From a virus, in the IMG/VR virus record IMGVR_UViG_3300025141_012845, positions 1 to 64,000 of that record: a DNA stretch of 64,000 bases; one strand, 5' to 3'. Positions 3,858-51,179 of this stretch are shown here, in pieces. The position numbers and the translations under genes were made by a program. Each line of letters opens with the position of its first letter. Position 1 is the stretch's first letter. The notes beneath the pieces are model-generated. The model saw only the letters and a list, made by a program, of their open reading frames with translations. It made no database searches and was not told where the DNA came from.

Positions 3858-4289
3858 TTAAAAATCGGTATCATCAATATCTATAATTTTTACGTGAGAA
3901 TCGTCGCCAATCGTTATTTCTTGATCGTCATCAATTGTTATCGGACCATATAAAACAGAATTATAGTTTGCTGGTATCGTTATTGTGGTTATAGTTTGGG
4001 CGTTAGCCACCCCCATTGTATACACAATCCCAGCGGAAACAACAACACTACCAGTGGGGAAAGATGTGTCTCCGGCTGCATCAATGGTGACTGCACCGCC
4101 ATCTGCAACAGAGATGGATGCTGTATCAGATGCATCGTCGCCCTGATCGGCTTTTAGCGTTATAGTGGCGGCTGCCCCTTCTGCGCCTAAAACGACCAGA
4201 CTTTCCCCTTCTTGAAATTCTAAACTACCCGAAATCTGAACCTTAGTTCCGCTTTGTGGAAAAATTTCATTTACATATAGTTTACTCAT
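3858..4289 (-). CDS. Small tail-fibre-related protein (143 aa)
   Basis: N-terminus (MSKLYVNEIFPQSG) and the LKADQGDDA module are paralogous to the 3791 fibre; the C-terminal LYGPITI domain is shared with 4324..4611. Confidence 0.75.
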   Translation of the reverse strand: MSKLYVNEIFPQSGTKVQISGSLEFQEGESLVVLGAEGAAATITLKADQGDDASDTASISVADGGAVTIDAAGDTSFPTGSVVVSAGIVYTMGVANAQTITTITIPANYNSVLYGPITIDDDQEITIGDDSHVKIIDIDDTDF

Positions 4290-10427: not shown

Positions 10428-10936
10428 CCTGCTCTCGCGATGATAAGAGAATCTGCCATATCATAGTATTTTGGTTTTGGATTTCCATACTTTGTATATT
10501 CTACCTCAAAAGACTCCTCATTGTCAAGTAAAAAATTTAAAACTATTTGTTTTGCCTTTTTGCCTCTCTCAACTTTTATTCCGCAAGATTTCCTTGCTGT
10601 TGCTGCTCCGATATATTCCGGTTCTATTTCAAAGTCTCTCTTACAGATATATGATACTATACCATTAAATTTAGCAAGTGTCAACAAAGTTTTTGCAGAT
10701 GATAATCCTGGCCTGAACGCCATTAAAGACTGTTCAATAAAGATCGACTTAAACTTGAGTCTCTTAACATCGTACAATCTAGCCAGCATTTGCTTGACCC
10801 TCTCTGCTTTACTATGCAACGTCGGGAAATGATTTTTATTTCTCAAGTCCCACGCTTCACAATAAAGAACCTTTCCATCATTATCGAGAACAGTTGCTCC
10901 AACAATGCTGGTGCTGATGTCTAATCCAAGTATCAT
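10406..10936 (-). CDS. RuvC-like Holliday junction resolvase
   Basis: ILGLDISTSIVG, IFIEQ and DMADS acidic catalytic pattern of the RNase H fold. Confidence 0.85.
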   Translation of the reverse strand: MILGLDISTSIVGATVLDNDGKVLYCEAWDLRNKNHFPTLHSKAERVKQMLARLYDVKRLKFKSIFIEQSLMAFRPGLSSAKTLLTLAKFNGIVSYICKRDFEIEPEYIGAATARKSCGIKVERGKKAKQIVLNFLLDNEESFEVEYTKYGNPKPKYYDMADSLIIARAGWKKLNS

Positions 10937-12336
10937 ATATCGAGTTTTAATTTAAAAGTGTAATCTCTTTCTTCGGTCTTCTTAACTGGCGTTGCAACTT
11001 TTGCAATTCCAAGAAGGTTCTTATTTTCATCGTAAATGCCGATTTTTGAAATATAAGTCTCTTTCTTGAAACTTGCCGTATGACAATTATACGAGCTACT
11101 GACAATATTTTTAATAGAAATTTTATTATATTGGTGATAAAAAAGACTTCCCGTGTCAGCAAGCATGCTTGATCCTGAAAATATTACGTTGGTAGAATTA
11201 TCTCCTCCTACAATGATGGACCCCGTCGCGTTTCCATCTATATAACTTGGATTATTCGAATGGTTCAACCTTCCTCTTTCAGCATGAGCCATCATTGTCA
11301 AGACAGGGGTATAATTCGTTCCCTCAAAGCCAAGCCAATAACTTGAAGAAACTAGTGCAGATTGATAAGCGACAGAGCCCGAACCATCAAGTGGTATCCC
11401 CGTTCCCCAATATTCCCACCTTGGCAGGACAGCAGAACCTCCTGTGTAGGTAAGTTTATTGGCGCTGTCATCGTGAATACTTATATCCCAACTGCCCGTT
11501 AATAAAATAATTCCTTCATTATAAAGAACTACACCGGCTACACTGCCGCTTCCACCGCTTCCAGTTGGCCCAACCTGAATCAATTCGCCATTTTGATTTA
11601 TATCTGTACATTGACCAATCAAGGTTCCGCTCAAATAAAATTTTAAATCGACGGTGCCTTTCTCGATTCTACTTCCATAGTACATGGAAGGGATGTTTAT
11701 AAAATTTATGGCTTGTGCTGCTTTATTCCACTCTCCTGACGCGGAAAATGCATAGTGGCGACTGATAGGTTTATAGTGATTGAGCGTATTTTTTAAAGCG
11801 TGTATATAAGAACCTGAAACAGTTGTTGCCTTTTGCTTTTGACTAAGCGGATCAAAAATAATAATTTGTTTACTTTCTGACTTGTTGTTTGCATTTGGAA
11901 AATCTGCAGGATAATATCTTCTGGCAATAGATGCTGACAAAGGATAACTGAAACTGGCTGTTAATATATCTCCGGGATCCGCTTCGTTTACAGAGGCTGT
12001 TGACATTGTCTTAAAGGCTATAGAATCTCCCGTCAAGTGTACAAATGGATGAATCATTGCCTTTACACCGACCTCTGTTGAATAGTTGTAGGTGTGCAAA
12101 TGTTCGGGCCTGTCGACATTTAGTTCGTATAAACTGATATCTCCAACAGGAGTGTGTGTGACATTTCCACTGTGATTGAATGCTACTCCGTCGTTTGTTG
12201 GAGGTAATAAACTACCTGTATCAAAGGGGGCATTATTGTAAAAAACACTGCCGCTATAAATTATTAAATTTGTTTTTGGGCGCGTTTTTATTCTATTGTA
12301 AAAAACATCATTTCTTCCGAATCTGTATAAAGGCAT
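10933..12336 (-). CDS. Baseplate/tail structural protein (467 aa), paralogue of 12352..13488
   Basis: Shared GxxxYxxGIxxL, SxNPxY and C-terminal YISKIGIYDENKNLLGIAKVATPVKK..KLDI motifs; position in the structural module. Confidence 0.7.
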   Translation of the reverse strand: MPLYRFGRNDVFYNRIKTRPKTNLIIYSGSVFYNNAPFDTGSLLPPTNDGVAFNHSGNVTHTPVGDISLYELNVDRPEHLHTYNYSTEVGVKAMIHPFVHLTGDSIAFKTMSTASVNEADPGDILTASFSYPLSASIARRYYPADFPNANNKSESKQIIIFDPLSQKQKATTVSGSYIHALKNTLNHYKPISRHYAFSASGEWNKAAQAINFINIPSMYYGSRIEKGTVDLKFYLSGTLIGQCTDINQNGELIQVGPTGSGGSGSVAGVVLYNEGIILLTGSWDISIHDDSANKLTYTGGSAVLPRWEYWGTGIPLDGSGSVAYQSALVSSSYWLGFEGTNYTPVLTMMAHAERGRLNHSNNPSYIDGNATGSIIVGGDNSTNVIFSGSSMLADTGSLFYHQYNKISIKNIVSSSYNCHTASFKKETYISKIGIYDENKNLLGIAKVATPVKKTEERDYTFKLKLDI

Positions 12337-12351
12337 CTTCCAACAACCATC

Positions 12352-13488
12352 TTAAAAGTCCAGTCTAACACGCAAAGTAAGTTCGCTTTCAGGAGTTTTT
12401 TTGATGGGCTCGGACAGTTTTGCCACTGCCATAAGTTCGTTTTCTGCAGAATACAACCCAACCGTTGTTACATATGAAACTGGTTGATCCAAGCTGGACT
12501 CTTTAACTCTGATTTTGCTCCCGGAAACATACGTTGGGTTAGAACTGTAATTAAACTCATTGTGTCTCATTCTACAAAAGTGAACTGTAGAGTTTAACTC
12601 TGTTGTATTATTAAAATCTAAGTTCTTCCATCTGTTTCGAAGACCGTCACAACTTCTTTGAATTGTTGAACCAGTAAGAGTGTCATGTGCAGTTTGGGTT
12701 CCGGTCTCAAATTGATCACGAAGAATATCTACAGAGGCGGAAAGAATTCCTCTTCCATTCCAACCATCAGCATCACCTGAGTTTATCATGAACGCTGAAG
12801 CGGAAAGAACTGCGATTCCTGCTTGATAGAACAATAGCCCAACTGGGAATGTTATATCTCCTGTGGTGATATTGTCTGCTCCGCTTAGAGGAGTTCCCAT
12901 ACTGTTACTCGCACTTAAAATTGCATACTCTCCGGCAGGCGAATCAGTGAAATAATCAGTAAGTCCGTTTGTGTCCGCAAGCTTAATTGTTTTTTCAAAG
13001 GGTTGAGTAGATGTTGCATTCACACCAACCTCAAGACTAAAAGATCCCTTTTTAACTTCATCTTTAGTCAACAATCTTGAGAAGTTAACAAAATAAACTT
13101 CTCTCATATTAATCGATTGTCCAGGAATTTTAAATTCTTTGATTGATCCAGTGATATCGTGACCCATCAATACTTGCGCCATTTGATTATAAAGGTTAAT
13201 CTTTTTAGCATTTTGCGAATTGCCAGAAGCCGAAAGCGCAGATCTTGAACCATATCCGACAGTTAAGTCATAAATATGATTAGCAGAAGAACTTAAATAA
13301 GGATAGTCATACACAGACTCAAACATTCCGTGAGAGTATGTTTTAATATGCGGTTCGCTGCCAAGAGCGGTTGCTGCAGTTCCGTATGTTCCTGAAACAA
13401 TCGATCCCGTAAGCGGGATTGCTTCATGAAGAAGCGTTTTAGTTGTTACCTTATCTGAAGGGTGGAGATCTTTGAATGTGTTAGCCAT
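12352..13488 (-). CDS. Baseplate/tail structural protein (378 aa)
   Basis: C-terminal YVTTVGLYSAENELMAVAKLSEPIKK..RLDF resembles the end of gpH/DUF3751-type fibre-attachment domains. Confidence 0.7.
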   Translation of the reverse strand: MANTFKDLHPSDKVTTKTLLHEAIPLTGSIVSGTYGTAATALGSEPHIKTYSHGMFESVYDYPYLSSSANHIYDLTVGYGSRSALSASGNSQNAKKINLYNQMAQVLMGHDITGSIKEFKIPGQSINMREVYFVNFSRLLTKDEVKKGSFSLEVGVNATSTQPFEKTIKLADTNGLTDYFTDSPAGEYAILSASNSMGTPLSGADNITTGDITFPVGLLFYQAGIAVLSASAFMINSGDADGWNGRGILSASVDILRDQFETGTQTAHDTLTGSTIQRSCDGLRNRWKNLDFNNTTELNSTVHFCRMRHNEFNYSSNPTYVSGSKIRVKESSLDQPVSYVTTVGLYSAENELMAVAKLSEPIKKTPESELTLRVRLDF

Positions 13489-13499
13489 TATTTTTACCT

Positions 13500-14489
13500 T
13501 TATACCATTTTAACGAATCTAACAGGAATGTCAATTCTTGCGCCCGTTGTTTGTCCCGTTACTCTTACAACAGTGTCAATGTACTTTACAGATTGAACAG
13601 TCGAACTAGCATCCGAAGAGCGAGTCCAATTGCCTGACGCTCCAAGTTTATCAAACAGGAAGTCACTTTGTTGAAGATCTATAGAGGACAATATCTTAAA
13701 TTCAAGTTTTGTACCGCGTGGCCCTTTGATAACAGACTCGCTCTTATCAGCAGAACTTGTATCCGTCGTCAGGTCTCCTATTAAAGTTCCTGTTGAGGTA
13801 GAGCCTGCTGAAATATAATAGTGGTGAATGTTGTCGTCGTCAAGAAAACTAAACGGCACTACTTGTGGGTTGTCTGAAGATTTAGTTGCAACTTTGCCAA
13901 GTCTAGCATCGATTTCAATCTTATACTGATTCTCATACAAATCAAAAGACTTAAGTGGGACTGTTGGATCAATCTCGTTTGTGTCCAGTCCCTGATCAAT
14001 TCGTATAATTGAACCTCCGTTTCCGGTGGTTCCTCTGAGAACTCCATTAGAGTTTGCAAATAATCCGGGGTTACTAGACAATGTTTCTTTTTCTGAAGTG
14101 TCTGCGTCAACAAGAACAACAAACTTGTTGTCACCGCCGCCAACCAATGCTTGATTGCTTGTGCTGTTGCGGGCGTTGTCTGAATGCGCTGTCTCGTTCA
14201 GTCGTAAAACTGGGAGATATAGTAAATCGGGATTCTTGATCATTAACAACTTATGCTTCATCATTGATGTGTTATTTGTGAAAGCTTCTAATATTGGGGT
14301 CTGCAAAAGATCTAGATCGTAATATGCGCTTCCATTCGCATGATCCTTATTATAAAGTTCATAATTAATCTCATCGTCTCCCAATGAAAACTTTGCAATA
14401 TTAAAACTTCCCTCAGCCATTCTCTTTCTTCCGAAGTCGGTTAAAACAGCGTCTAAGATGATATCGCCAGAATTGTCTAAGAATCCCAT
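13500..14489 (-). CDS. Baseplate/tail structural protein (329 aa)
   Basis: N-terminal DAVLTDFGRKRMAEGSFNIAKFSLGDDEINY resembles the start of gpH/DUF3751-type domains; SD AGGAG. Confidence 0.7.
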   Translation of the reverse strand: MGFLDNSGDIILDAVLTDFGRKRMAEGSFNIAKFSLGDDEINYELYNKDHANGSAYYDLDLLQTPILEAFTNNTSMMKHKLLMIKNPDLLYLPVLRLNETAHSDNARNSTSNQALVGGGDNKFVVLVDADTSEKETLSSNPGLFANSNGVLRGTTGNGGSIIRIDQGLDTNEIDPTVPLKSFDLYENQYKIEIDARLGKVATKSSDNPQVVPFSFLDDDNIHHYYISAGSTSTGTLIGDLTTDTSSADKSESVIKGPRGTKLEFKILSSIDLQQSDFLFDKLGASGNWTRSSDASSTVQSVKYIDTVVRVTGQTTGARIDIPVRFVKMV

Positions 14490-14515
14490 ATTTTTTTTCT
14501 CCTAATTCTTTGTTT

Positions 14516-14525
14516 ATAAATAGTT
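14516..14525 (-). promoter_or_regulatory. Putative late-promoter motif AACTATTTAT
   Basis: Recurrent motif about 26 nt upstream of ATG 14489. Confidence 0.5.
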
Positions 14526-14567
14526 TTGTTTAGTAAAATAGCTCATTTCCTAAAATTTATTACTCTA

Positions 14568-17500
14568 TCAGCACTCTTCCTCATCAGGATCTTGAGTAGT
14601 TGTTATATCAGTTCCCGTCAAATCAGGTGGTATAATTTTGCTGGTCATTGGGTCTTCTACTATCTCCGCCATACTCTCCCAAATGATGTCTTCCTCTGGT
14701 GTTTTGTTATGATTGTGGCTAAATCTAAGAATGAAATCCATCTTTCTGCCAGTTGATTTAGACGTCAGTCTAACCTTAAACTTCCTAAAAGTATCGTCTC
14801 TGAATAAAGACTCTTCTGTTAGCCCGATTGGGACATTGTAAGAGTCGGGTGCTCTTCCGCGAGTAACGTGTCCAGTAGAGGTCCTTTTCTTTCCTTGTGG
14901 GCCATATGCCCAATTATCAAAAACACCAGCAGTGTTTTCGTCCAACACTGATTGTTCATATGTGGGCCTAACCTGTAAGAGTTTTCTCATTGGCTTGGTA
15001 AAAGTTTCTTTTGGATCCTGAAATTCAAATATTTTGGTTGCCAAATACACCGCTCCGGAGTTGTTTACTAACTCAATTTCATATATGCTAGTCGGATTAG
15101 ACATATTGCCTCTGCTATCTTTGGCTCTAAAAATATAATAATATTTCTTATTTGGAACAATGTTCTCAAAGTGCCCAATCGAAGACGCACCATCTAAAGG
15201 AATCTCTTTATAATAGTTTCCGTCTACAGAGTTATCATAAGTCGCCTTTCCGAAATCCATATAACTTGTAGGCTTGTATCCTAGTCTGAAAACCTCATAT
15301 GAAACTGGGATGTCGTCTGTTTTATATATTAGAGGAAAGTTGTTTTGTATTAAAACTCCAATTTTGGCTTTTAGTTGTAGTACAGGGTTTCCAATACTGG
15401 ATGCTTGTGCATATTTTTGTTCAATAAGGGTCTTTTCTTTAGTGGATATGTTCATGCTACTAAGTTCTTCATCAAAATCAAGAATCTTTGCATTAATATA
15501 TTGATGAATATATTGTGGAACTGGGTCTTCTTCAGGGCGTTGCGTAGAACTGAAAATATTTATAGGCTTTTGTTTAGAGGTCAGTGAACCCTCTCTGAGG
15601 TTGAAGAGAAATTGCCTATCATTATTCTTAAACGGAATAGGCTCAACCTCTGGCGGTGTCGGATTGAGATCGACAACCTTTATAAATGGTGTTTCAAAAT
15701 AGGGTAGTTCAACAATTAAAGGATCGGGAACCGACTCAACTTCTACTCTCAAAGAAAAAGGTCCTGGTTTTGGTGGTACGCCAGGTCCATCTCCTGGACT
15801 AAAGCCTCCTCCTCCAAGACTTACGCCTCTCATTTTATAAGCATATCTTGTGCCAACAATCAACTGTAGTGCCGTAACTACATATTTGTACCCTACTCCG
15901 TACTTGACTTGCGAATCAACATAGTTGAAAACTTCTTTGCTGCCACTATTAAGAAATAAAATTCTTTTTTTGACCTTCTGTTCATCATCGCTGACACCTT
16001 CTCTGATTTTCTCTATAACATATCCTATTGTTTCGCTGTGGGCTAGTTTTCCGTCTAATATTTCTGAAAAACTTCTAGTTTTAGAATATAAAGGTTGTAA
16101 CCCGTGCATTATCCAATCTCTTATGTGCTCATTTTGATCAGCACCAGATGGGCCAACAGGAGTTGCTACTCCATCGACTCCGTGTATAAACTTTAAAAAC
16201 GGCATATAATGTTCTTCGCTATAATCTTTAAAGAAGGTTGTATAATTTGCGTCAGGGGCATCAGATCCCTCACTATTTGAGCTTCCTTCGTCTAATAAAA
16301 GATCTTTAGGCCTTCTCAAAGAAGGGTCATTAACATCTAAAATGGTTGGGTTTGCTGGGTCTTCAATTTCTTGTCCTGGGAAGTTCCCAACAAGAATAGT
16401 CTTCGGCAGATAGTAGTTATACAAAAACCCGCCACATACAAACAGGTTTCTTGCGAATCTTGTTAAATTAAGAGTGTCGCGAGCCACATACTTTGCTTCT
16501 TCTAACTCATCAGGCATTAAACCATCTGTCATCACCAGTGGTGTCACCGTCCAATCATCATGAACTTGTTTTATATACTGTGAAGATTCATTTAAAGATC
16601 TAAAATAGGATGGCCTATCTGGCTTTTCCTGCTTGGCCTCCATAATTCTCTTTACTATTGAATATTCTGGTGAATATTCCAAATCCTTAACCTTTGTAAC
16701 ATCTATTTCGATGAGTTGTTTGCTCAGTCCTGCTACGCCCACTTCTGCTACACCTGGTACTGTATATTCTCTAGACCCTCCGAAAAATAATGGTTTTAGA
16801 CTTCCTGCGTAGGCTGGCTCAGTGTAGAAACTAATTTTATTATAGAAGGGGTACATTGTTATGTTTGCAGGGTTGTCCTCCATTACCCGGATACTTTCAT
16901 CTAGTAAGATGGTGTTCTTAAAGTGATCAAGAGGGGTAATTCCGCCTGACCAAAATGGGTGGTCGGCAGCAGTACCTGATACATACTTTGCCCACTTTTG
17001 GTGGTAATTTTCAGTTTTCGCTTCGCCAGCCTTTAAAAACTTTATTCCAGACCCGGCGTAACCCTCACCCATTGGCACGGCTTCATACGAAAACTGATCT
17101 ACAAAAACATCAAGTTTGCCAGCTAGTGTAACAAATTGGTGATAGTTTTTTTCAGTTGGAAGAAACTCGGGGTTGTCAAAAGTTATCTTATCGAAGGTGT
17201 TGACTTCCATTGAAATCGCATGATGATCAGGCAGAGTGTGTTCTGGTATATAATCTGGCTTTATAGCCTCCTCGTATGATTCGAGCTTGTTTTGAAAAAT
17301 TGGAGAAGTGTGAAAGCCTATAACGTCTTCCGGATGAGAATCTGGTCTTATATACCTCGATACATAATCGTAATATTCTCTTTCTAGTTTTTCATCTTTA
17401 GCGATTATCTCAGAGGCTTTTTGGAAGACCCCTTTGATCTGTACAAGATGCTCCGGAAGGGTTTGATTGTTTGGATATCTTATTTCAAGTATCTCTCTTA

Positions 17501-18194: not shown

Positions 18195-18204
18195 TTATTA
18201 GTCC

Positions 18205-22271: not shown

Positions 22272-22279
22272 TTCTACCA

Positions 22280-22288
22280 GTAATTATC
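22280..22288 (-). promoter_or_regulatory. Putative late-promoter motif GATAATTAC
   Basis: Recurrent motif just upstream of ATG 22271. Confidence 0.4.
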
Positions 22289-22327
22289 CCAATTTGCTAA
22301 ATTTCAGCCCATAAAGGCTCCCTGTAA

Positions 22328-25300
22328 TCATTCTGATTCAGATGGCGGCATTTCTGTTTGCATCGCAACATAGGTTGTTGGTGCAGATTTGCTTGTTCCG
22401 TTTGAATCTGAATCTCCTGACTGTTTCGTTTGCATCCCCATATAAGTTGTTGGTGCAGACTTGCTTGTCCCCTTTCCTTGTTCTGTTTGCATTCCCATGT
22501 AGGTTGTTGGTGCAGACGCCTCACTGGTTCCATCTCCAGGATCCTGCATTGAAAACTTAAGACTACTTTGAAGGGTCTTACTAGTAAACTCTGCTTCTGC
22601 ATCCAGTTTCGCCAACTCGACAAGCGAAAAGAAGTCATAAGGCCAATTATAACTATAAGTAGGAATTTTGGACTCACCACCAATCTGAAGCTTAAACCCA
22701 AATCTGTCGTCATCAGTTGAGTCTGCTGTCGTAGCGAAATAGTTAAAGTTCGCTCTTTGTTTTACCTTAAATACCATCCATTGTGTTTCGGGTGGAAGTT
22801 CTTCGCCAGAAAAGAACTCGTTTTTAGCCATGACGTGCGAAATCACAACTTCTTCTTTTTCAGCAGTTGTCGATATTTTTGGCGTAAGGTTTTGCCAGAT
22901 ATCGGATAAGTCATCCCTGTCTAATCTATGAGTAAATTCAAATATATACGCAACGAATGGCTTCACATTCTTGTTGTTTAAAAAGTCTAGGTGTGGAGGG
23001 AAAACATATTTCTGCATCGACTCAACCATATTAGTGATTGATTCTCCAGGAATCTTGTTCTTGCTCTGCAGAATTCCAACTTGCTGTTTAGTTGCGACTC
23101 CCAAAACATAGTCAATTTGAGACTTTAAGACTGGGAAGAACCTTCTTTTCCTCTTCTTTTCTATAAATGGGATCGCTACTATCGCTTCAGATATTAATTT
23201 TTCATCAGCAACCTCTCCAACTCGCTTCTGTTCAGGACTAAACCCGCATACGTCAATTAAAGAACCAGTTGTTGGCTGAACGCCTATGGCATTTAGATCT
23301 GCTCCGGTAGATGGAAAGCTTTCTTTTATTCTCATGAAGATCCCTTCTTGCCCAGTTGGAGCGGAGCCATACGCTCCCCAAATTGATTTTGTTGCGACAG
23401 AACTTGTTAAAACATTAAACGGTGCTCCAGTGTTCGATGGATCGTACGCAACTTGTGCATCATATAAAGTTCCAACATTTGAAGAGGACACATTAATTGT
23501 CGGACATTCAAATTTAGGACTTATAACCCAAACATCGTTTGCTGAACTAATTGAATCTTTAATTTTATCTGCTACAAATTTACCATCTGCGGCCTTTTCA
23601 ACGCCATATTCAATCTCTTTCAATCTTGTTTTACCAAAGAGGTTTATTGAGGAAGAAACCCTCATTTGAGACAAGCCTGCTGCTGCACTAAGCTCTTTTG
23701 ACCTTTGAAGAACGTTTGTCATATATGTATAACTGGATGTAAACAGGGTTTCCACTTTAGCCCCGGCTAGTATTTCATCTAAAGTAAAGGTCTTGCTCTC
23801 ATTATCCAAAAGGAAGTCTTTCTTATGTGGGCTGAAGGCTAGTCTAGCAATTGCTGCTCCATAAAAATATGGAGGAGTGTACGGAGCGAATGAAGGGTCG
23901 ATGTTATTAAACTCCATGTTCATAGTTACCTGCCCTGCTGGAACAGCGTGAACAGGCATTGTTTTTACAGGGGGTCCATAAATAGCACCCCTATAGTTTG
24001 CAAAATATCGGTCGCCACCAGCAGAAACACCAAAATCTTTTGCCACGCCTGCAGCAGAATTATAATCTACTTTAAATTGTACATGTGATGGTCCCTCTGA
24101 TAGTACAAAATTATCCGTTTTATAAAGCTCAACATCCATATAATAAGTTGTTCCTGAAACCATTGGTTTAAACTTGCTTTCTGGAGCGGACGTAAAAGAT
24201 TTAAACTTTTGATTTTGAAGAAAGAAGTTAGGCACTTCTGCTAAGAAGTTGTGCATCGCAAGTGAATATTGTGGCTTACTTTTACCATTCCAATCAAAGA
24301 AGATGTGTTGTTGAGATCCTGAGTGTGGATATAGAAGGCTTATTCTATAATCCGGGAATCCACTGTCTGAGGCTCCTGAAACAGGTATATATCTTTGTGG
24401 CTCAACCAGTGCTTCAAAAGGCATTCTATAATCAAAGATACCCCCTCCTCCAGCAGTATCAACTTGGGGGTCTCCTGCAAAACTAAAAAATGAGAAATGT
24501 TCTCCGTCAACTCCATGCTCTGGAGGGGTTGAGGCCGTAACATTAACAGAGCCCGTACACACCGGCCAGTCCACAGCAATCCCCGATTTTACAGTGTTAT
24601 ACATGATTCCTGGTGCAAAGAATGGCTGTAATAAAGATTGTAGTTTCTCTGCTTGTTGTGCATCTGGTGTAAGACTGGTTATTTTAGAACCGCCGATGAA
24701 AGGTCCGAACGACTGAGATAAAAGTCCTCCAAGTTGCACAGTTCTCAAAACGGGATAAAACCCCTGATATGGTAACAGTTTTTTAACACCGTTGCATTTA
24801 AGAGTCAGCCTAGAAAGTCTTGCATTATCAAGATCTTCCGAAACTTCTGCGAAATGTTTCATAAAGTCAGAATGTGAATAAGTTGTAAAGAAGTCCTCAT
24901 TATAGGATCCCGTACCAGCCGCATCTGCACTTGCAGATACCTTCGCTCCCTCAAGTGTTAGAAAGCGATTATTGAACGAGAATCCGTTGTCAACGTAGTA
25001 GTCCATATGTTCAGAAATCCTAAACTCTGGTATGACTGTGTGATCTTGTCCCATTCCTTTTATATCCTGAGCGTAATCGTCATATGAATCATACCAAGGA
25101 TTTTTACCGGCAAATTCACTAGTTCTATAGAAATTATAGTTAAGATTCCAAGATCTATTGTATTCCATTCCCCAAAGTTTAGTTGTGCCAGCATCACTAG
25201 ACCAATTAACAAAATTTGGATAGATAAACTGCTGAGATGCCGTCGGGGCTGTTGCCGTAAGATAACCAGCGCCTCGACTTGGTACAGTATCTGAGGTACC

Positions 25301-28300
25301 TAATGCCGCAGACACATGAAGGATCCCTCTAAATCTTTTATTTCCACCTGGATCGCTAAGTTGAGAGAATGCGTCTTTTACAATCGTAAACTCTGTAGGG
25401 GCCATCAACTCCCCATTGATCCCGTTATAAGTTGATAACTTTGATGTTGAGGTAGAACCAGAAACATAGTACCCATCTAAAGGCCATACACTTAAAGCGG
25501 GCGGCTGTACAATGGAGGCGTCAAGAACGCCGCCTAGTGAAGAAGAATATGCTCCAACATTTAGAACTTGTAATTTATCTGTAGTATTCTTTGCTGTCCC
25601 CGAAGTTCTCTTTCTGTCTGTGACACCGTCTCTCCAGAAAGTTCTTTGATCGCCCAATCGAGAAGAGTCTATTTGCGCCTGCGTCTCTGTATATGAAATT
25701 CTTCCTCTTGCTTTTGCCAAGAATGCGTTTTCCTCTCTAGGGTAAACCGTTTCAGAGTATGTTAACTTGCTGAGTTGTAGTTGGTTTGATGGGCTTTGTA
25801 TTACCGACTTAAAAGAATCATATTGAGTCTTTTTAGCCTTTGCTACTTGATCCAGTCCAAGTTTATAATCTAAAGTATCATCTGGCATAAACTCTAACTC
25901 ATTTCCAAATGACTGATCTATTTCTACAGGCTCCTCGCCTGGGATCTCAACTTCAAACTCAACTGGCTTGTATTTATTCGTTACGGAGGTAACCGTAAAG
26001 CTTCTTATATCTCTTTTCAAACGTGGATCATTTGAGTAATTGGTAAGTTCTGGCTTGTTAGGTAAGGCATCTGTTTCTATAATATCAAGAACGTTGTTTT
26101 TTCTTTGATATCTTACAATAGGGTGACTGTCTTTAATGTTTAATTTCCAACTCGCGCCTTGATATGGGCCGCTTCTATGCTTCATCAAGATGTTAAACCG
26201 ATTTCCCACTGCAAAAGAGCCAGCAGAGATTACATCTGAATTTCTGTAATCGACAGAAGAACTTAATGTATTGCTCGCGGTTAAAACGGTATCAACCACA
26301 AGAGTGTTGAGACCAACAGCATCTGAAAATAAATTACCATATTTTGGAAACTTTCCTTCGGAAAAATCGATTGCAGGTTCAAAACCTCCTGCGCCAGAAA
26401 CCATGCCGTCATAAGACTTATTAGTCGATGTAAACTCAATTAACTTGTGATTGCTTTTAATCGAGGAAGTTACCCAAGCATATTGCAACTCAGTTCGTGG
26501 AATAGCATGATTAACAAAGTAGTTATTAAATACGGAAGCAGTAATATTTCCAGCAGTAGAGTTTTCTATTCTTCTAATAACGTTTCTGTGTGTCTTATGG
26601 TAAGAGGCTGTAGTTTCATAGTCTGACGCCCCAACTGTTCCGTATTCACCATCAACGCCGAAACGGCCTGAACGTCTTGAGAGGACCTGTCTTAAGCCGT
26701 CATTGTTGGTATGAAAATCTGTCTTAACAGAGATATTCATCGGGCCATTGGTATCTGTGGATGCTTGGCTTCCAGAACTGTTCAGAACATTATGGTTTCT
26801 GAATGTGTGAACATTGTAGACTGAAAGCTCTTCTGCTGCTGTATCAAGATATCCTCTCGAACTTACTTCAAAACCTCCTGGTGCGGAGAACCTCTCAACT
26901 ATTACCTTATTCTGAGTTGAACGAACTGGAATTGAGAAGTCAAGAGACCCTGTAAAATAGGGTACTTCTGCGGTTGAGGAAGAAATATTGCTTGCATTCA
27001 AAGAGAGCCATTTATTGTTTAATCTTCTTCCTGAAGTTTGCGCAAGTTCATATACATTCTGATAATTACCTATGTTTGTTCCTGGAGAATCCGAAGAAGC
27101 GGTTGTCATTTGTATATTTTCAATGTTTATTGGAGATTTTGTTCCTTTATTAAAGAATGATCTCGGCAAGTTATAGTTTATTGCACCATCTAAATCTGAA
27201 TCTGCGGGGAAAATTGAGATATTTGCTTTATCGCCGCCAGCATAAGTAGACTCTAGATGTGATGCAGATCCTGAAATTCTAAAAAACTCTGGTCTCGTTA
27301 ATATTGTATCGTTAACGGAGTCTCCAACAGGCTCTTTTCTGTGTGGTCTTCCGCCAACAAATCTTTCTGTGAAAACGCTCTGTAATGGTTTTTCATATCC
27401 GATATCGTAATCTTGGTGAATGTTTGTTATTTCAACGCCAGAACTATTTGTGTAAAAGGCTGCTATACCTTCTAGAAACTTATTACTCTTAACATTAGTT
27501 GCCTTACTTATAACTTCCGGAAATAATCTGACCTTCGGGTTTTTTGTTGTTGGCTTCTCAAAACCTTTCAGTGTTACGGAACCCGAGACGACTAATATTC
27601 TAGTACTTGGCTTGCTATCTGAATCAAGACCTCCGAAAATGGTGGCCGGATTTAGCGCGTCGGTTTGTCCTCCTGTATCTGAAGGTTGATTATGGCCCCC
27701 TTTGATTATAACTCCCGGCGACATTTTTAAGTCTACACTGAAATTGTCACCAGCCCCATTGAACACTCCAAGAGTTGATGCGTTACTGAACTTCGCCGCT
27801 AGGAAATCGGAGCGTTTAGAATCTACGGTGCTGTTTCCGCTGGTGTTGCTTTCATCGCTATCGCCAGGATCATGTCTTGAGTGCCAACCGTGTCCATCTG
27901 CGTCTCCTGTGTCCTTATTGTTGTCTGGACCGGCGTTTCCTTCCCGGTCCTCATTGAATCCAGGAGGTTTAACACCTTCGTCGGTCCACTGTTTTCTCTT
28001 ACTTAAAAAATCATCCCTATCAATCTTAGCTTCTATGTCTGGTGGTAACGCGTCGGCAACAGTTCGAGTTGCCTCTGCATTAGGCACACCATCAAGTCCA
28101 ATTACGGTGGGTCGACCAGGTTGATGTTTCTTTGAGATTCTGCTTCTCTGCTCTATCGTTGGATACTTATTCCAATATTTATTTCTTTCTAAGACATGAC
28201 TCTCAACAACTGTTCTCAACCTATCAGAGTGGTCTGCAGAAGCAGGAAACAACTGTTGAAGCATCTCTCCGAGCGAACTATCGAGCCATCTATAATAGGT

Positions 28301-31300
28301 TACATACTTGTCCAAGTCTGGGGTGTTCTTAACTCTTTGGAAAAACAACTCTCTTAGTTTCTCCATATGCTTATAGTTCATTCGGTATCTGTTAACATTC
28401 TCACCAATTAAATTGTTAAAGCCCTTTATGGTTGCAAAGAAGTTTAACATCTCCTCAGAAATACTTTGATACATACTCTTTTCAATTGCAACATAATAGT
28501 TTGTTGGTCTAGTCTCTCTGGTGAAAGTTACATCATCTTGCGTCAGAACATTGACCATGTCTGCGCTGTTGATCATTTCTGGTCCCTTCTGCTCGAAAGA
28601 ATTCAAATATACAATATCATGCGAAGATGTTGAATTTGTTGGGAATTTATCTCCACGAGCGGTGTGTTGATGCTCGATTACGTTCTCTATCCACCCATAC
28701 CTGCCTGGAACAGGCATTGTTTCCACTTTCCCATCACTATCAAAAGTTGTATTAGCCGAACCAGACGATGCGTCTGCCACAAAAAACTGTCCCGATGCAT
28801 TAGAGCCCGTTATTTGATTAAAGTTCCAATTAAGAGCCAGTGTCTTAATTTGTGGAACTCTCCTAAATTGGCCCTGTGCGATAGACTCATTTAAGTAAGT
28901 TTGCATATCAGCATCTGCATTTTCAAACAAATAGGCGCTTTCATATGGATATAATGTTCCATAATTTGAAACATCTTTTGCATGTGCATCAATGACATCA
29001 TTATTAATATAATCCATCCATGCTCTAACGGATGACACTTTAACATCAGAACTTTGTTGTATGCTACCTGTAAAATTCTCTCTATGTGCTCCTGCAAAAA
29101 TCTTTTTTGGAGAACTTAAAAAGTTGTCTCCTGCTTGATGTGTCATAGTTCCACTTACAAAGAACTTGTGTTGTGCAACGTTAGAAACCATATTCACTCC
29201 GTAGAATTCTACATCATAGTGATTCACAGCAGTCCCCCCATCTGAACTGCCGCTCACAGTATCAGAAAACAGGTGGGTATTCGGCTTGATTCTTACCGCT
29301 AAATTCCATTTTAAGTTATCATAAAGGTTGTGTATCAAACTGCTTGTTAGTTCTGGAATAAACCCTGCTCCTCTTGAGCCTGTTAACATAAAGAATCCGT
29401 TAGCCGAATTTGCTTTATCCCTAACGGTGAAGACTTGGAAGTCAACATAGTCAGTGTTGGCACTCGTTGTCCAAGAATGATCAGTTCCGACTCTTGGTCG
29501 ATGTGCTCCAAAGATCGAGGATGTTACGTCAGAATAGTCGTGGTATCTTGTTCCTCTTATATCATATTGTTTAGGTAAAACGATCTCACATTCAAATGTT
29601 TGCCCCAATCCGTTTTCTGGGAAGGTATTGCTTGGTGTTGATGCCTCTAGAGATCCAGTGATATATCCTATCGATTGCGGTATGGAACTTGTGTGTTGAT
29701 ATATTACTGCTCCGTGATTGTCTGCTCTACTAAAGTCTATACACTTCTTAGCAACCGATCTTTGGACGAATCTATCTTTTAATTCAAAATCTAAATTATT
29801 TGCATAGAGATTAATTTTAATCAATTCGTCATCTACGCCAAAACATCTAATTAAATTTCTGAAGGCATTCTCTGTTCCCTTTGCTTTATAGATCGAAGAC
29901 AAGTTATTATAAATGTTCTTGTAAATAAGGTTTTTAACATCGTGAAGATCTTCACTAAACAATCTATCTTCATCTCTCTGTAAGAAGTTCTCTAAAACAT
30001 CTGCATCTGCAAATATTTCAGATGTAACAAACCCTCTATGTTCTAATAATTTATCAGCGAAAGGAACCGGCTTGAATATATTACCGCTAACGCTGCTTGT
30101 CACATAACTATTTGATTTTATATCAGTTAAAGATTTAATCTGCAATGATAGGGTGTCGAAATAACTTGCCATTATTTGAGTTAATTTTAATAATTGCTCG
30201 CCACCGTCGCTATCCTCTGATGTTATCCACTCAGGAAAACTATAGTAAATCGAACCAGCATTTCTTTTATCATACTCTCGACCGACATATTTCTTTTCAT
30301 TTACCAGCGAATCTACGTCTGGGTGGTAAGAATATATGATTGGATCTTTAAATTCTGTTAAAGATGCGCTCGACTCCACAATGGCCGATCCTGTATTTCT
30401 TGAGTTTGCGGAATAACCTGTCCACTCTCCATTTGAAAGACGGCCAGCATAATCTAAAACAACTGCATCTGTCGCAGTAACTCCCGTTATACCTTCATTA
30501 AACTTGAAATACACGCCCAATTGTGTGTTTGCTTCGTCAATATTGGTGCCAGCACCTACAGGCTGCCTCATATATCTGCCTATCAATTCTGTTGGCCTCT
30601 CTACTTTCCAGAACCTAAACTCGTCAATAGAGCCTGAGAGCTTTCCATAGCCTCTCATCTTTTGCATGTCTTCGCCATTTGCATAAGTTAACGATTGAGC
30701 GGCGTTCGTACCAGAAACAGAAGCAACCAGAGACCCTACGGTAGCGACCATTGCTCCACTAACATAGTCAACAGTAGAACCGGTTACTACGGTGTCATCG
30801 CATTCGCCATCGACAAAAAGCTTAATTTCTAAACTCGCTGAATTTGCTTGCTCGGATAGTGCCTTTGGGTGATGAACTTTACCTAAAGATCCCGTAGTTT
30901 TTACAGTAATCGCAAAATGGTGCCAGTCATCATCAGAAATAAGAGCCTTAGTTGCTGTATCTCCAATGGGAACATAATACGCTCCATTGGTACCAGACAT
31001 ATAGGTTATTCGAAACGGCTGTGTATCGTCATCTTCTGAAAATTCGACTCTCATTCTCGCATAATCTATACTGGAACTTATGCTGCTAGTTGTATAACAA
31101 TCAAATATGACCTCGTTTGTCGCTACATGGCTACCCTCTTTAACGAAATTAATCTTTTTCAACCAGAACTCTACAGTATTTCCTTCTATGCCGCCAATTT
31201 TAAGATTTGATTCTCTATTTTTGGAAAGATCAAATAAATTTGCTCCGCGAGAACCAGACATACGCTTTTCAATGTCTGGAAATGAGTCTTTTATCGAATC

Positions 31301-31756
31301 ATTATCGGGATCTGGGTTCGGCCCTCCTTTAAAAAAGATATATTCTTTTGTACTTGATAAAACGTACTCATAAGCAGTAGAGATGGTTGCGGCTGCAGAT
31401 CCCCATGACCCTGGTGTAATAATTCCATAACCATTTGTTCGAGGATACCAGTTTTCAAATATATGCAAATCAAGATAAGAAGAACTATTCATCCATGCGC
31501 TTTTTTCATATCTTGACCCATCATAAGGATATGTCTTAAACACTCTCTCGATTGAGGCTACATAATATTCTTCTGCAGATCCAAATTTAACAAACTCTTC
31601 AGGGTTGGTGTAGTCAAGCTCTGGTTGAAATCTTGTCTTCTCGTCCAGAGATTCGTTAACAAACCTCTCAGATTCCGCAGTTTTGCCAATCTCATCTAAA
31701 GTCTTTGATGTTAAAACTTTCTTAGGGGGTTCATTAAAAAGATCCTTAATACTCAT
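22328..31756 (-). CDS. Giant baseplate wedge protein (gp7/P2 gpI-like core) with LamG/ConA-like domains (3142 aa)
   Basis: IYKAKGTENAFRNLIRCFG wedge-type KGT motif; LamG hallmarks TVEFWLK, DDDWHHFAIT, LFVDG, SGSIDEFRFW, YFKFNEG; two genes downstream of gp6. Confidence 0.7.
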   Translation of the reverse strand: MSIKDLFNEPPKKVLTSKTLDEIGKTAESERFVNESLDEKTRFQPELDYTNPEEFVKFGSAEEYYVASIERVFKTYPYDGSRYEKSAWMNSSSYLDLHIFENWYPRTNGYGIITPGSWGSAAATISTAYEYVLSSTKEYIFFKGGPNPDPDNDSIKDSFPDIEKRMSGSRGANLFDLSKNRESNLKIGGIEGNTVEFWLKKINFVKEGSHVATNEVIFDCYTTSSISSSIDYARMRVEFSEDDDTQPFRITYMSGTNGAYYVPIGDTATKALISDDDWHHFAITVKTTGSLGKVHHPKALSEQANSASLEIKLFVDGECDDTVVTGSTVDYVSGAMVATVGSLVASVSGTNAAQSLTYANGEDMQKMRGYGKLSGSIDEFRFWKVERPTELIGRYMRQPVGAGTNIDEANTQLGVYFKFNEGITGVTATDAVVLDYAGRLSNGEWTGYSANSRNTGSAIVESSASLTEFKDPIIYSYHPDVDSLVNEKKYVGREYDKRNAGSIYYSFPEWITSEDSDGGEQLLKLTQIMASYFDTLSLQIKSLTDIKSNSYVTSSVSGNIFKPVPFADKLLEHRGFVTSEIFADADVLENFLQRDEDRLFSEDLHDVKNLIYKNIYNNLSSIYKAKGTENAFRNLIRCFGVDDELIKINLYANNLDFELKDRFVQRSVAKKCIDFSRADNHGAVIYQHTSSIPQSIGYITGSLEASTPSNTFPENGLGQTFECEIVLPKQYDIRGTRYHDYSDVTSSIFGAHRPRVGTDHSWTTSANTDYVDFQVFTVRDKANSANGFFMLTGSRGAGFIPELTSSLIHNLYDNLKWNLAVRIKPNTHLFSDTVSGSSDGGTAVNHYDVEFYGVNMVSNVAQHKFFVSGTMTHQAGDNFLSSPKKIFAGAHRENFTGSIQQSSDVKVSSVRAWMDYINNDVIDAHAKDVSNYGTLYPYESAYLFENADADMQTYLNESIAQGQFRRVPQIKTLALNWNFNQITGSNASGQFFVADASSGSANTTFDSDGKVETMPVPGRYGWIENVIEHQHTARGDKFPTNSTSSHDIVYLNSFEQKGPEMINSADMVNVLTQDDVTFTRETRPTNYYVAIEKSMYQSISEEMLNFFATIKGFNNLIGENVNRYRMNYKHMEKLRELFFQRVKNTPDLDKYVTYYRWLDSSLGEMLQQLFPASADHSDRLRTVVESHVLERNKYWNKYPTIEQRSRISKKHQPGRPTVIGLDGVPNAEATRTVADALPPDIEAKIDRDDFLSKRKQWTDEGVKPPGFNEDREGNAGPDNNKDTGDADGHGWHSRHDPGDSDESNTSGNSTVDSKRSDFLAAKFSNASTLGVFNGAGDNFSVDLKMSPGVIIKGGHNQPSDTGGQTDALNPATIFGGLDSDSKPSTRILVVSGSVTLKGFEKPTTKNPKVRLFPEVISKATNVKSNKFLEGIAAFYTNSSGVEITNIHQDYDIGYEKPLQSVFTERFVGGRPHRKEPVGDSVNDTILTRPEFFRISGSASHLESTYAGGDKANISIFPADSDLDGAINYNLPRSFFNKGTKSPINIENIQMTTASSDSPGTNIGNYQNVYELAQTSGRRLNNKWLSLNASNISSSTAEVPYFTGSLDFSIPVRSTQNKVIVERFSAPGGFEVSSRGYLDTAAEELSVYNVHTFRNHNVLNSSGSQASTDTNGPMNISVKTDFHTNNDGLRQVLSRRSGRFGVDGEYGTVGASDYETTASYHKTHRNVIRRIENSTAGNITASVFNNYFVNHAIPRTELQYAWVTSSIKSNHKLIEFTSTNKSYDGMVSGAGGFEPAIDFSEGKFPKYGNLFSDAVGLNTLVVDTVLTASNTLSSSVDYRNSDVISAGSFAVGNRFNILMKHRSGPYQGASWKLNIKDSHPIVRYQRKNNVLDIIETDALPNKPELTNYSNDPRLKRDIRSFTVTSVTNKYKPVEFEVEIPGEEPVEIDQSFGNELEFMPDDTLDYKLGLDQVAKAKKTQYDSFKSVIQSPSNQLQLSKLTYSETVYPREENAFLAKARGRISYTETQAQIDSSRLGDQRTFWRDGVTDRKRTSGTAKNTTDKLQVLNVGAYSSSLGGVLDASIVQPPALSVWPLDGYYVSGSTSTSKLSTYNGINGELMAPTEFTIVKDAFSQLSDPGGNKRFRGILHVSAALGTSDTVPSRGAGYLTATAPTASQQFIYPNFVNWSSDAGTTKLWGMEYNRSWNLNYNFYRTSEFAGKNPWYDSYDDYAQDIKGMGQDHTVIPEFRISEHMDYYVDNGFSFNNRFLTLEGAKVSASADAAGTGSYNEDFFTTYSHSDFMKHFAEVSEDLDNARLSRLTLKCNGVKKLLPYQGFYPVLRTVQLGGLLSQSFGPFIGGSKITSLTPDAQQAEKLQSLLQPFFAPGIMYNTVKSGIAVDWPVCTGSVNVTASTPPEHGVDGEHFSFFSFAGDPQVDTAGGGGIFDYRMPFEALVEPQRYIPVSGASDSGFPDYRISLLYPHSGSQQHIFFDWNGKSKPQYSLAMHNFLAEVPNFFLQNQKFKSFTSAPESKFKPMVSGTTYYMDVELYKTDNFVLSEGPSHVQFKVDYNSAAGVAKDFGVSAGGDRYFANYRGAIYGPPVKTMPVHAVPAGQVTMNMEFNNIDPSFAPYTPPYFYGAAIARLAFSPHKKDFLLDNESKTFTLDEILAGAKVETLFTSSYTYMTNVLQRSKELSAAAGLSQMRVSSSINLFGKTRLKEIEYGVEKAADGKFVADKIKDSISSANDVWVISPKFECPTINVSSSNVGTLYDAQVAYDPSNTGAPFNVLTSSVATKSIWGAYGSAPTGQEGIFMRIKESFPSTGADLNAIGVQPTTGSLIDVCGFSPEQKRVGEVADEKLISEAIVAIPFIEKKRKRRFFPVLKSQIDYVLGVATKQQVGILQSKNKIPGESITNMVESMQKYVFPPHLDFLNNKNVKPFVAYIFEFTHRLDRDDLSDIWQNLTPKISTTAEKEEVVISHVMAKNEFFSGEELPPETQWMVFKVKQRANFNYFATTADSTDDDRFGFKLQIGGESKIPTYSYNWPYDFFSLVELAKLDAEAEFTSKTLQSSLKFSMQDPGDGTSEASAPTTYMGMQTEQGKGTSKSAPTTYMGMQTKQSGDSDSNGTSKSAPTTYVAMQTEMPPSESE
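22356..22516 (-). repeat. Three coding repeats SAPTTY[MV][GA]MQT at the C-terminus of the 3142-aa protein
   Basis: gtttgcat...gttgttggtgcaga units at about 22356, 22428 and 22485; spacings of 72 and 57 nt are both in frame. Confidence 0.9.
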
Positions 31757-31761
31757 AGCGT

Positions 31762-33351
31762 TTACTCAACCCTAAATTTAAAAGTCTCTGGTTGCTCTAG
31801 ATATTTGCCGTTTACAAAGTAGACAAATTTGACTCCATAAGCATATCCCGACTCAAGAAGAGTCATATCCAGATCAAAATAACTACCAGATACATCAAAT
31901 GAAAGTCTCGTATAATCAGATGCTGAACCAGTTGCTCCTGGTGAACTGCCCGTGCCGTATTCAATCACGTCCACTGCATCTGTAACTCTAAGAATTTTAT
32001 AGTATGCATCCTCTACGATTAAGTTTTCTACGTCTCTTGAGGCTACTTTATAAATGTTTGGATTCCAGTTTCTATCTCTAGTGTAAACTCTGAATCTTAC
32101 GTTTTCTTGGTCTGCGTAAGAATCTTTTAAGTTTGTGATTTTTGTCGTATAACGAGGTGTGTTGGCAATATTAAGACTATCGAGCGTTGTTGGCGAAATT
32201 GTTCCGGTATGAAATTGTGTTCCAACTCCTGCTGCTGCATCTGCGTCTCCTTTCCACCAAACATCAAACAACCTCGTTAAGGCGTCGTCTTGACCTGATG
32301 CCGCTGCGGTCAATGCAAAAGATGCCGTATATATACCCGTTTCTATGTAACCTCCTGTGACAACTTGATTATTTGCACTGCTAACGTTATGGAGGTCTGA
32401 AACAAGCTGTAGTGCAGAGCCCGTCGGACTGGAATTGTCGAGTGATCCGGAGTAAAGACTCACGTAAATTGCACCTGTGCCGACGTCGGGAATGTTTTGC
32501 AACTGACCCCTGACGACGTTGTACAAGTATATCGTATTAAGGTTGTCTTCTCCAGAAGAAAGAGAACTGCTATAAAAGAAGTTTCCTCTATCATCTTTAT
32601 CTGTCGAGTCCCAACGTGCCTCAATACAGGGCCTTTTAAAAAAGAATTCTGTTCCTCTCGCAAAGAATTTCTTGGTATAATATGATTTTTGAGCACCAGC
32701 AGTGTTGTGTAGTAACTCGCTCGTATTTGCTCCTGTAGAGCTTGAAAAATACGATTCTTGAGAGGATGTAAGATAAATCGCCAAACCGTAATTTGACTTT
32801 GTTCCAGCCATCCACTCCTCAACCAGGCCAGTAATGTCCACACTCAAATCCTCATGTCCTCTATCAAAAGTTGCAACATATACAGGACTATCGTGGAAGT
32901 TTCCACCAATCGTGCCCCATGTCGTGCCCTCTGATGCGTATATCCAGTTAGTGCCTACTCCATCATTAGTTAAGTCGGAATAGCCTTCCATATCTAAACC
33001 ATGTCCCTCCTCCCAAGCTTGAGAAACTGCAGATATGACGAGTGTGTAACTTCTAGGAAGAGTGAAAGCATGCTTCGCATTATATAAATTAAGATAAAAC
33101 TGTACACTTCCAGTTGCCGGGATTGTACCGGCTGTTCTATCGGAAGAGATTGTACTTGTGGGGAACTTATACAACGCTCTCGATAGTTCTGGAGAATATC
33201 CAGTGGAACCTGATGCTTGTCCGTATATAGAGAATACCTCTGTAACGTCAGATTCACCCATATTTGAGCCTGTTCCTCTTGTGACTAGGTTTGACTCAAA
33301 TGCGTTAGTAATCGTCGTGTCAGCGTCCGATATGTACCTTTTAATGCCCAT
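31762..33351 (-). CDS. Structural protein with a DNRLRE-like N-terminal beta-sandwich domain (529 aa)
   Basis: DADTTI, RALYKF, WEEG, NW..W..GG, VDITGLVEEW and NYGL pattern; immediately downstream of gp6. Confidence 0.6.
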   Translation of the reverse strand: MGIKRYISDADTTITNAFESNLVTRGTGSNMGESDVTEVFSIYGQASGSTGYSPELSRALYKFPTSTISSDRTAGTIPATGSVQFYLNLYNAKHAFTLPRSYTLVISAVSQAWEEGHGLDMEGYSDLTNDGVGTNWIYASEGTTWGTIGGNFHDSPVYVATFDRGHEDLSVDITGLVEEWMAGTKSNYGLAIYLTSSQESYFSSSTGANTSELLHNTAGAQKSYYTKKFFARGTEFFFKRPCIEARWDSTDKDDRGNFFYSSSLSSGEDNLNTIYLYNVVRGQLQNIPDVGTGAIYVSLYSGSLDNSSPTGSALQLVSDLHNVSSANNQVVTGGYIETGIYTASFALTAAASGQDDALTRLFDVWWKGDADAAAGVGTQFHTGTISPTTLDSLNIANTPRYTTKITNLKDSYADQENVRFRVYTRDRNWNPNIYKVASRDVENLIVEDAYYKILRVTDAVDVIEYGTGSSPGATGSASDYTRLSFDVSGSYFDLDMTLLESGYAYGVKFVYFVNGKYLEQPETFKFRVE

Positions 33352-49992: not shown

Positions 49993-49998
49993 TGCTGT

Positions 49999-51156: not shown

Positions 51157-51179
51157 TTTATTTTTCCATTGGTTTAGTT

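Follow-up and report, generated by a model that had tools for sequence, protein, structure and literature searches.

We analyzed a 64,000-nucleotide stretch of viral DNA (the window), which comprises bases 1 to 64000 of the 75.7-kb viral contig IMGVR_UViG_3300025141_012845 from IMG/VR and encodes outer baseplate and fibre proteins in which the tripeptide [ST]-[GAS]-[ST] is strongly enriched. All window genes lie on the minus strand. In the order of transcription, gp25-like and gp6-like baseplate genes are followed by genes for proteins of 529, 3142, 358, 998, 1208, and 329 amino acids (aa), then by two paralogues of 378 and 467 aa, a 176-aa protein, a primase, a fused Mre11-Rad50 protein, and the fibre genes; the same order is kept in relatives. 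A first-pass annotation had proposed that the tripeptide is an enzyme recognition site, perhaps an O-glycosylation sequon. We counted the tripeptide and a strict form of it, Phi-[ST]-[GAS]-S, where Phi is a hydrophobic residue. The genes concerned are as follows.

10933..12336, minus strand: 467-aa conserved virion protein (p467); 18 [ST][GAS][ST] sites, 9 strict
12352..13488, minus strand: 378-aa paralogue of p467 (p378); 12 sites, 9 strict
31762..33351, minus strand: 529-aa protein directly after the gp6-like wedge gene (p529); 16 sites, 6 strict
22328..31756, minus strand: 3142-aa giant baseplate or fibre protein (p3142); 58 sites, 28 strict
3..3791, minus strand: 1263-aa fibre protein, C-terminus beyond the window edge; enriched under the strict motif only
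3858..4289, minus strand: 143-aa small fibre-like protein; 4 sites versus 1.6 expected, not significant alone

Expected counts of [ST][GAS][ST] were derived from 2000 composition-preserving shuffles of each protein. By this measure, p467 has 18 sites versus 3.9 expected (z score of 7.4), p378 has 12 versus 4.2 (z 4.0), p529 has 16 versus 6.3 (z 4.1), and p3142 has 58 versus 23.3 (z 7.5). The by-eye counts of the first-pass annotation (about 18, 12, 15, and 50, in the same order) and its estimate of about 4 expected in p467 were close to these values, and the excess that it expected to survive shuffling does so, both globally and in blocks (z 4.0 to 7.5). Confining the shuffles to blocks of 30, 60, or 100 residues left the excess unchanged; therefore, regional composition is not its cause. 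An unbiased scan of all exact tripeptides recovered the same words, with TGS at the top (24 versus 2.8, z 13) and SGS high (18 versus 4.0). The reported selectivity also held up: there are no sites in Mre11-Rad50, the thiamine diphosphate (ThDP) enzyme, or PanB, and counts are at or near expectation in gp6 (2 versus 2.6), the 1208-aa protein (5 versus 3.5), and the 2761-aa protein (11 versus 8.1).

The sites share a context. The residue at position -1 is hydrophobic in 61% of cases versus 31% in the background, in line with the flanks described earlier; Val or Leu occurs there at three times the background frequency; and Ser occupies the third place in 85 of 104 sites. These 104 sites are encoded by 88 distinct 9-mers, with TCN and AGY Ser codons at every place, which rules out a DNA-level signal and agrees with the earlier statement that codons vary and that selection acts on the protein. 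An artefact of chance, composition, low complexity, tandem repeats, or DNA-level signal is hardly credible. Ser, Thr, and Gly are somewhat more abundant in the enriched proteins, but composition, whether global or local, is ruled out by the shuffles, and BLASTP found neither internal repeats in p3142 nor similarity between p3142 and the other enriched proteins. Enrichment is, moreover, reproduced in hundreds of orthologues.

The strict motif sharpens the signal: p467 has 9 copies versus 0.8 expected, p378 has 9 versus 0.7, p529 has 6 versus 1.1, and p3142 has 28 versus 4.1. Fibre genes had also been said to share the tripeptide; under the strict form this is true of the 1263-aa fibre (9 versus 1.9, z 5.2), but the count in the 143-aa protein does not reach significance. 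Pooled over these five enriched proteins, from p467 to the 1263-aa fibre, the strict motif occurs 61 times versus 9.1 expected (6.7-fold, z 17), whereas a version ending in Thr is merely 1.8-fold enriched. It is absent from gp6 and from the 1208-, 2761-, and 329-aa proteins. Across the outer baseplate and fibre proteins of this phage and its relatives, it stands 5 to 12 times over expectation.

As for the two fibre-like proteins themselves, they have a common N-terminal region (34% identity over 172 residues by BLASTP), and residues 462-522 of the fibre match residues 13-74 of the 143-aa protein at 58%; this second match points to a possible internal duplication or module exchange.

Two kinds of explanation compete for a motif of this sort. 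The first is that it is an acceptor site for O-glycosylation. The second is that it is structural only, comprising lineage-specific [ST]-small-Ser hairpins or strand caps held by side-chain to main-chain hydrogen bonds and inherited with the structural module of the phage group, while the phage's glycosyltransferases act on a small molecule, a host component, or another protein site. Several properties of the motif speak against the second. Neither of the classic turn words, Phi-[DN]-G-[ST] or Phi-[ST]-G-[DNK], departs much from 1-fold in the same five proteins. Among words of the form Phi-X-G-Z, X and Z are both Ser or Thr in 22%, versus 2% in T4 and 2% in structural proteins of this genome that are not enriched; the motif is specific for a hydroxyl at each end, and the two are coupled. 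The third place prefers Ser over Thr, although Thr favours strands. Known sequons do not account for the excess: in the five proteins, the Bacteroidota O-glycosylation sequon D[ST][AILVMT] occurs 33 times versus 31.3 expected, and the N-glycosylation sequon N-x-[ST] (PglB/HMW1C type) occurs 68 times versus 61.9.

Most of the enriched proteins show no detectable homology to one another by hhalign and BLAST, in line with the apparently unrelated folds noted earlier. Only the p467 and p378 families are linked by hhalign (99.4% over 211 columns); p529 shows no homology to either by hhalign. In the ESM Atlas, p529 falls into viral clusters only, one of which has CBM96 in 14% of its members. p467 and p378 have a common C-terminal domain of ∼40 residues, which recurs in five proteins of Microcystis phage Mel-JY01, two of Flavobacterium phage immuto, and one of Rhodothermus phage RM378.

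Enrichment is conserved among orthologues. The p467 family has >3500 homologues, with 519 cluster representatives at E<1e-30. Among 116 diverse members, the mean is 12.7 sites versus 3.9 expected, and 10 conserved columns hold 7.2 sites per sequence. Likewise, 75 orthologues of p378 have a mean of 10.9 versus 4.0, with 5.5 per sequence in 7 conserved columns; 77 orthologues of p529 have 15.6 versus 6.1, with 10 conserved columns; and the first 1400 residues of p3142 in 56 orthologues have 29.1 versus 11.1, with 14 conserved columns. Orthologues of gp6, p329, p176, the primase, and Mre11-Rad50, which are equally conserved, are at or below expectation. That four families without detectable homology, apart from the p467-p378 link, carry the motif while equally conserved neighbours have none is a further argument against a purely structural origin. 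The first-pass annotation had supposed that positions might turn over among orthologues while density is kept; this proved wrong, as the excess sits in 7 to 14 fixed columns per family.

Within these columns, two patterns were found. At some sites, the Gly between two strands is invariant and the word is exchanged for N-G or D-G words in orthologues, as in hairpin turns (p467 sites 28 and 263; p378 site 113; p529 sites 80, 301, and 488). At others, such as p467 sites 126, 134, and 420, G, A, and S interchange and the hairpin-turn pattern is absent; TGS, TAS, SAS, SSS, and TSS replace one another there, and the final Ser is nearly fixed.

We modelled one protein, p467, using AlphaFold2 and 116 sequences (predicted local distance difference test [pLDDT] score of 80; predicted template modelling [pTM] score of 0.76). 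In the model, none of the 18 sites lies wholly within a strand or helix (P of about 0.01), and contact with a strand end is seen for 10 of the 18 (P = 0.12 against a background of 39%, not significant). The placement outside strand and helix interiors, with SGS28 and SGT236 at two-residue hairpin turns, also fits an acceptor motif. About half of the sites lie in segments with pLDDT of 50-70, outside the confident core, which does not favour a purely structural role. The fold has no PDB match in Foldseek at E ≤ 0.001, and a wide VIA-align search gave Z below 5; in BFVD, p467 matches only uncharacterized phage proteins and ones labelled ConA-like or LamG.

The relatives of this phage are uncultured marine phages of ∼160-205 kb; 536 related IMG/VR stretches were identified. 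The closest cultured phages, all distant, are Mel-JY01, RM378, and immuto. Structural and replication genes common to RM378 and to uncultured marine and freshwater contigs define the Far-T4 phages (PMC4360716). RM378 carries the p467 C-terminal domain and a pair of GT4-family glycosyltransferase genes, and the contig carries gp6- and gp25-like genes; judged by this gene content (the p467 C-terminal domain, the GT4 pair, and the gp6- and gp25-like genes), the contig belongs among the Far-T4 (RM378-like) phages. We compared the genome-wide ratio of observed to expected strict motifs and the number of enriched open reading frames (ORFs) across seven genomes.

This contig: GT4 pair present; strict motif 4.0-fold; 5 strongly enriched ORFs
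immuto: GT4 pair present; 3.0-fold; 8 strongly enriched ORFs
RM378: GT4 pair present; 2.8-fold; 4 strongly enriched ORFs
Mel-JY01: GT4 pair present; 2.6-fold; 5 strongly enriched ORFs
S-PM2: no GT4 pair; 1.6-fold; 0 strongly enriched ORFs
HTVC008M: no GT4 pair; 2.0-fold; 2 mildly enriched ORFs (z of about 4.3)
LR756508, a 484-kb megaphage: GT4b-like gene only; 1.0-fold (61 versus 60); 0 strongly enriched ORFs

Immuto, RM378, and Mel-JY01 each combine the GT4 pair and the C-terminal domain of p467 and p378 with motif-rich proteins of the baseplate and fibres. In immuto, enrichment falls on the proteins that follow the wedge gene and on those annotated as tail fibres and spikes. None of the 24 T4 proteins scored (head, tail, baseplate, and fibre) is enriched (z -1.7 to 2.5), and their strict-motif total is at expectation; that such beta-rich tail and fibre proteins show nothing is difficult to reconcile with a structural role alone. 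A generic feature of phage tail proteins is ruled out by T4, S-PM2, and LR756508. Actinophage phiPsal1, in which transferases lie beside the capsid gene, has no such motif. In LR756508, ORFs of at least 200 aa called with translation table 11 cover ∼295 kb of the 484 kb; an alternative genetic code may be the reason, which slightly weakens the use of this genome as a negative control.

The glycosyltransferases of this phage lie at the end of the window and beyond it, next to a group of sugar genes.

48194..63054, minus strand: sugar-nucleotide island, by profile matches of the encoded proteins
63054..64000 (gene to contig position 64688), minus strand: GT2 glycosyltransferase of 544 aa (Pfam GT2), C-terminal part in the window
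Contig 64681-65943 and 65943-67202, beyond the window: two core GT4 genes (Pfam GT4)

GT4a adjoins GT4b, the pair has 46-64% identity across the phage group, and both proteins keep the EX7E motif. We found GT4b in 36 of 50 records (identity, 52-64%), including all 8 that are ≥90% complete and every record that is ≥66% complete; the records without it are all fragments of ≤56% completeness. To judge from this distribution, the GT4 pair are core genes of the phage group. In the PDB, GT4b matches the chlorovirus glycosyltransferase B736L (3OY2) best, over the full length (E = 1e-9). The pair neighbours a PD-(D/E)XK nuclease gene in this contig and in immuto; the gene upstream of it in RM378 carries the annotation DNA-polymerase-I-like.

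The island encodes a cupin, a HAD-IIIA phosphatase, an HldE-like nucleotidyltransferase and kinase, a DegT/RfbH-like pyridoxal phosphate enzyme, an RmlC-like epimerase, a radical SAM-SPASM enzyme, the ThDP enzyme, PanB, a B12 radical SAM enzyme, an SDR epimerase/dehydratase, and several unannotated soluble proteins; all of the enzyme matches are below equivalog cut-offs. The HldE-like functions are split over separate genes (rfaE_dom_I, E = 8e-36; rfaE_dom_II, E = 3e-35; NCBIfam, below curated cut-offs). Alongside the HAD-IIIA phosphatase, scans of the island found no GmhA-type isomerase. The ThDP enzyme is acetolactate-synthase-like and directly adjoins PanB. From these matches, the island (window 48194-62726) appears to lead to an unusual nucleotide sugar. 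Its content varies between relatives, while the motif is constant.

What else could the transferases modify? ThyA-family hydroxymethylases are absent from five genomes (TET/JBP-type enzymes were not searched for), and the DNA of immuto contains only dA, dC, dT, and fdPreQ1 by liquid chromatography-mass spectrometry, in a paper from which the word "glycosyl" is absent (PMC10516641). DNA glycosylation by the transferases is accordingly unlikely. Exported polysaccharide was rejected as well: the island encodes no multi-pass membrane protein and no flippase, polymerase, or ligase, and the lack of multi-pass membrane proteins makes it unlike an export pathway.

The motif could also be a site for something other than sugar, such as Ser phosphorylation, acylation, a radical-SAM-dependent change, or docking of a chaperone or partner subunit. 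The specificity and coupling of the motif would fit such a site, several conserved sites lie in low-confidence segments of p467 that could become ordered on binding, and weak matches of the island's radical SAM-SPASM enzyme include peptide maturases. On the other hand, scans of the 75.7-kb contig revealed no protein kinase or acyltransferase, the radical SAM enzyme has sugar genes as neighbours and its matches extend to sugar-modifying enzymes such as DesII, and the variable island contrasts with the constant motif. We consider this improbable.

These results lead us to propose, tentatively and at a little less than an even chance, that the motif is an O-glycosylation acceptor site in outer baseplate and fibre proteins, modified in the cytoplasm by the phage's own soluble glycosyltransferases. 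We favour an acceptor because the hydroxyls are coupled, Ser is preferred in the third place, and turn words are not enriched, and because the motif recurs in unrelated outer tail families in phages whose core soluble transferases have no other obvious substrate. We infer that the transferases act on the motif proteins and read the motif, and likewise which Ser would be modified. In the proposed mechanism, Phi-[Ser/Thr]-[Gly/Ala/Ser]-Ser-Phi would mark fixed positions in loops or at hairpin tips between beta-strands, where the coupled hydroxyls would be kept as acceptors for cytoplasmic O-glycosylation. The conserved GT4 pair would start the glycan, and the variable island would add further sugars, here possibly a nucleoside diphosphate-heptose-type and a branched sugar, yielding a sugar-decorated tail periphery. 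The wider proposal, that Far-T4 phages O-glycosylate their own baseplates and fibres in the host cytoplasm, with the GT4 pair reading the motif at hairpin tips and strand ends and variable islands extending the glycan, here perhaps by a heptose-type branched sugar, is possible but doubtful.

A number of observations weigh against an acceptor site, and the following also favour the structural alternative. The excess lies wholly in conserved columns: outside them, counts are at or below chance in p467 (4.2 versus 3.9 expected), p378 (3.0 versus 4.0), p529 (4.1 versus 6.1), and p3142 (11.1 versus 11.1), and glycan shields usually turn over. At Gly-centred sites, orthologues that lack the motif have DGK, DGN, NGN, SGN, or EGN, which are typical tight-turn sequences; as read from these replacements, the constraint there is a turn, and SGS28 and SGT236 are predicted to form two-residue beta-hairpin turns in the p467 model. 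The middle residue is always small (G, A, S, occasionally C). All four motif-rich groups share the structural module, so the link between the GT4 pair and the motif is confounded by shared ancestry: motif, module, and transferases are inherited together, and their co-occurrence is therefore not independent evidence. In Pelagibacter phage HTVC008M, an unrelated T4-like phage of marine origin, two giant structural proteins are mildly enriched (33435-36485, strict motif 6 versus 1.4; 37918-43923, 10 versus 2.9) with no GT4b homologue in the genome. LR756508, which has a GT4b-like gene without GT4a, is not enriched. Among curated proteins, GT4b matches BshA and MshA best, and the substrates of these two are small molecules. 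Two further findings belong on this side. No natural loss of the GT4 pair was found among relatives, and no avoidance of the motif is seen in non-target proteins, where ratios run from 0.85 to 1.26 in every genome examined (the window enzymes have ∼5 sites versus ∼14.5 expected, summed over proteins, to which we give no weight).

Taken together, the idea of an enzyme recognition site fared unevenly: protein-level selection, coupling, and restriction to a lineage with the GT4 pair support it, but fixed positions, turn-like replacements, and shared ancestry do not. A structural role alone is a serious contender that we rate below an even chance but almost level with the acceptor site, and the small share of probability that is left goes to explanations beyond those discussed here.

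The proposed system resembles several known ones in part. The autotransporter heptosyltransferases Aah and TibC (BAHT) modify Ser, not Thr, beside small residues, as in QNSGG and NTSAA (PMC3835316, PMC4358343). Like the enzymes proposed here, they are soluble and cytoplasmic and act at many sites on beta-rich, surface-exposed adhesins (AIDA-I and TibA); their donor is ADP-heptose, and this island has the split HldE-like kinase and nucleotidyltransferase, with matches below the curated cut-offs. Unlike them, the island proteins and the three glycosyltransferases have no Glyco_transf_9/BAHT match in Pfam and NCBIfam, only GT2 and GT4 matches, and whereas their substrate is a beta-helix with 19-residue repeats, the candidate substrates here are phage tail proteins. 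In the BAHT system, the acceptor Ser opens a short loop between two beta-strands; in the p467 model, the sites avoid strand and helix interiors, and their contact with strand ends is not significantly above background. Bacteroidota O-glycosylation differs in that it acts on exported proteins, whereas phage tail proteins are assembled in the cytoplasm.

Viruses that decorate their own particles with their own soluble glycosyltransferases offer another parallel, namely, chloroviruses (capsid) and mycobacteriophages (capsid and tail tube). GT4b has the chlorovirus enzyme B736L as its best solved relative. Chlorovirus glycans are N-linked at atypical sites. In mycobacteriophages, the sites are in Ser/Thr-rich C-terminal tails, and the transferase genes lie next to the capsid gene; here, the transferases lie beside the sugar island and the nuclease gene, and the sites are dispersed and internal. 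GtfA and GtfB are encoded by two adjacent GT4-type genes and add O-linked N-acetylglucosamine (O-GlcNAc) in the cytoplasm to Ser in S-x-S-x contexts such as SAS, in serine-rich repeat adhesins. Their acceptors are long low-complexity repeats, in contrast to the single dispersed sites here, and GtfB is noncatalytic, whereas both GT4 proteins here keep EX7E; neither GtfA nor GtfB is among the PDB sequence matches. Finally, type I'/II' hairpin turns and Ser/Thr strand caps resemble the Gly-centred sites between strands with their DG/NG/GN swaps, but differ in that Ala or Ser often replaces Gly here, in addition to the contrasts in turn words, coupling, and third-place Ser described above.

Other genes of the contig are worth recording. 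The fused Mre11-Rad50 protein (1051 aa, window 6324-9479) is 51-65% identical in relatives, where its gene always follows the primase gene, and has a homologue in Mel-JY01 at 30% identity. Beyond the window, contig 68333-69085 encodes a 250-aa protein with a weak, below-cut-off match to the anthrax lethal factor metalloprotease domain family (E = 1.6e-4), which probably reflects merely a zinc-peptidase motif. Further on are a PIN-PhoH fusion protein (69313-70632), a trypsin-like serine peptidase on the opposite strand (71045-71815; the sole plus-strand gene seen), and a ClpP-like protease (71966-72598), whose gene probably marks the start of the head module.

To our knowledge, glycosylation of tailed-phage particles is established for only a few groups, and the system proposed here, if true, would have no precedent among T4-like phages as a case of virion glycosylation guided by a sequon. 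Should the motif prove to be an acceptor, an abundant group of ocean phages, known from uncultured marine and freshwater genomes, would be sugar-coated on the parts that contact the host, with consequences for host recognition, stability, and visibility to defences or grazers. The frequency of large sugar-gene islands in marine phage genomes would then have an explanation, and exposed, modified virion proteins could be predicted by a simple sequence rule. Even if its role is structural only, the motif would mark out one class of tail proteins sharply and in a lineage-specific way, and would help to annotate them.

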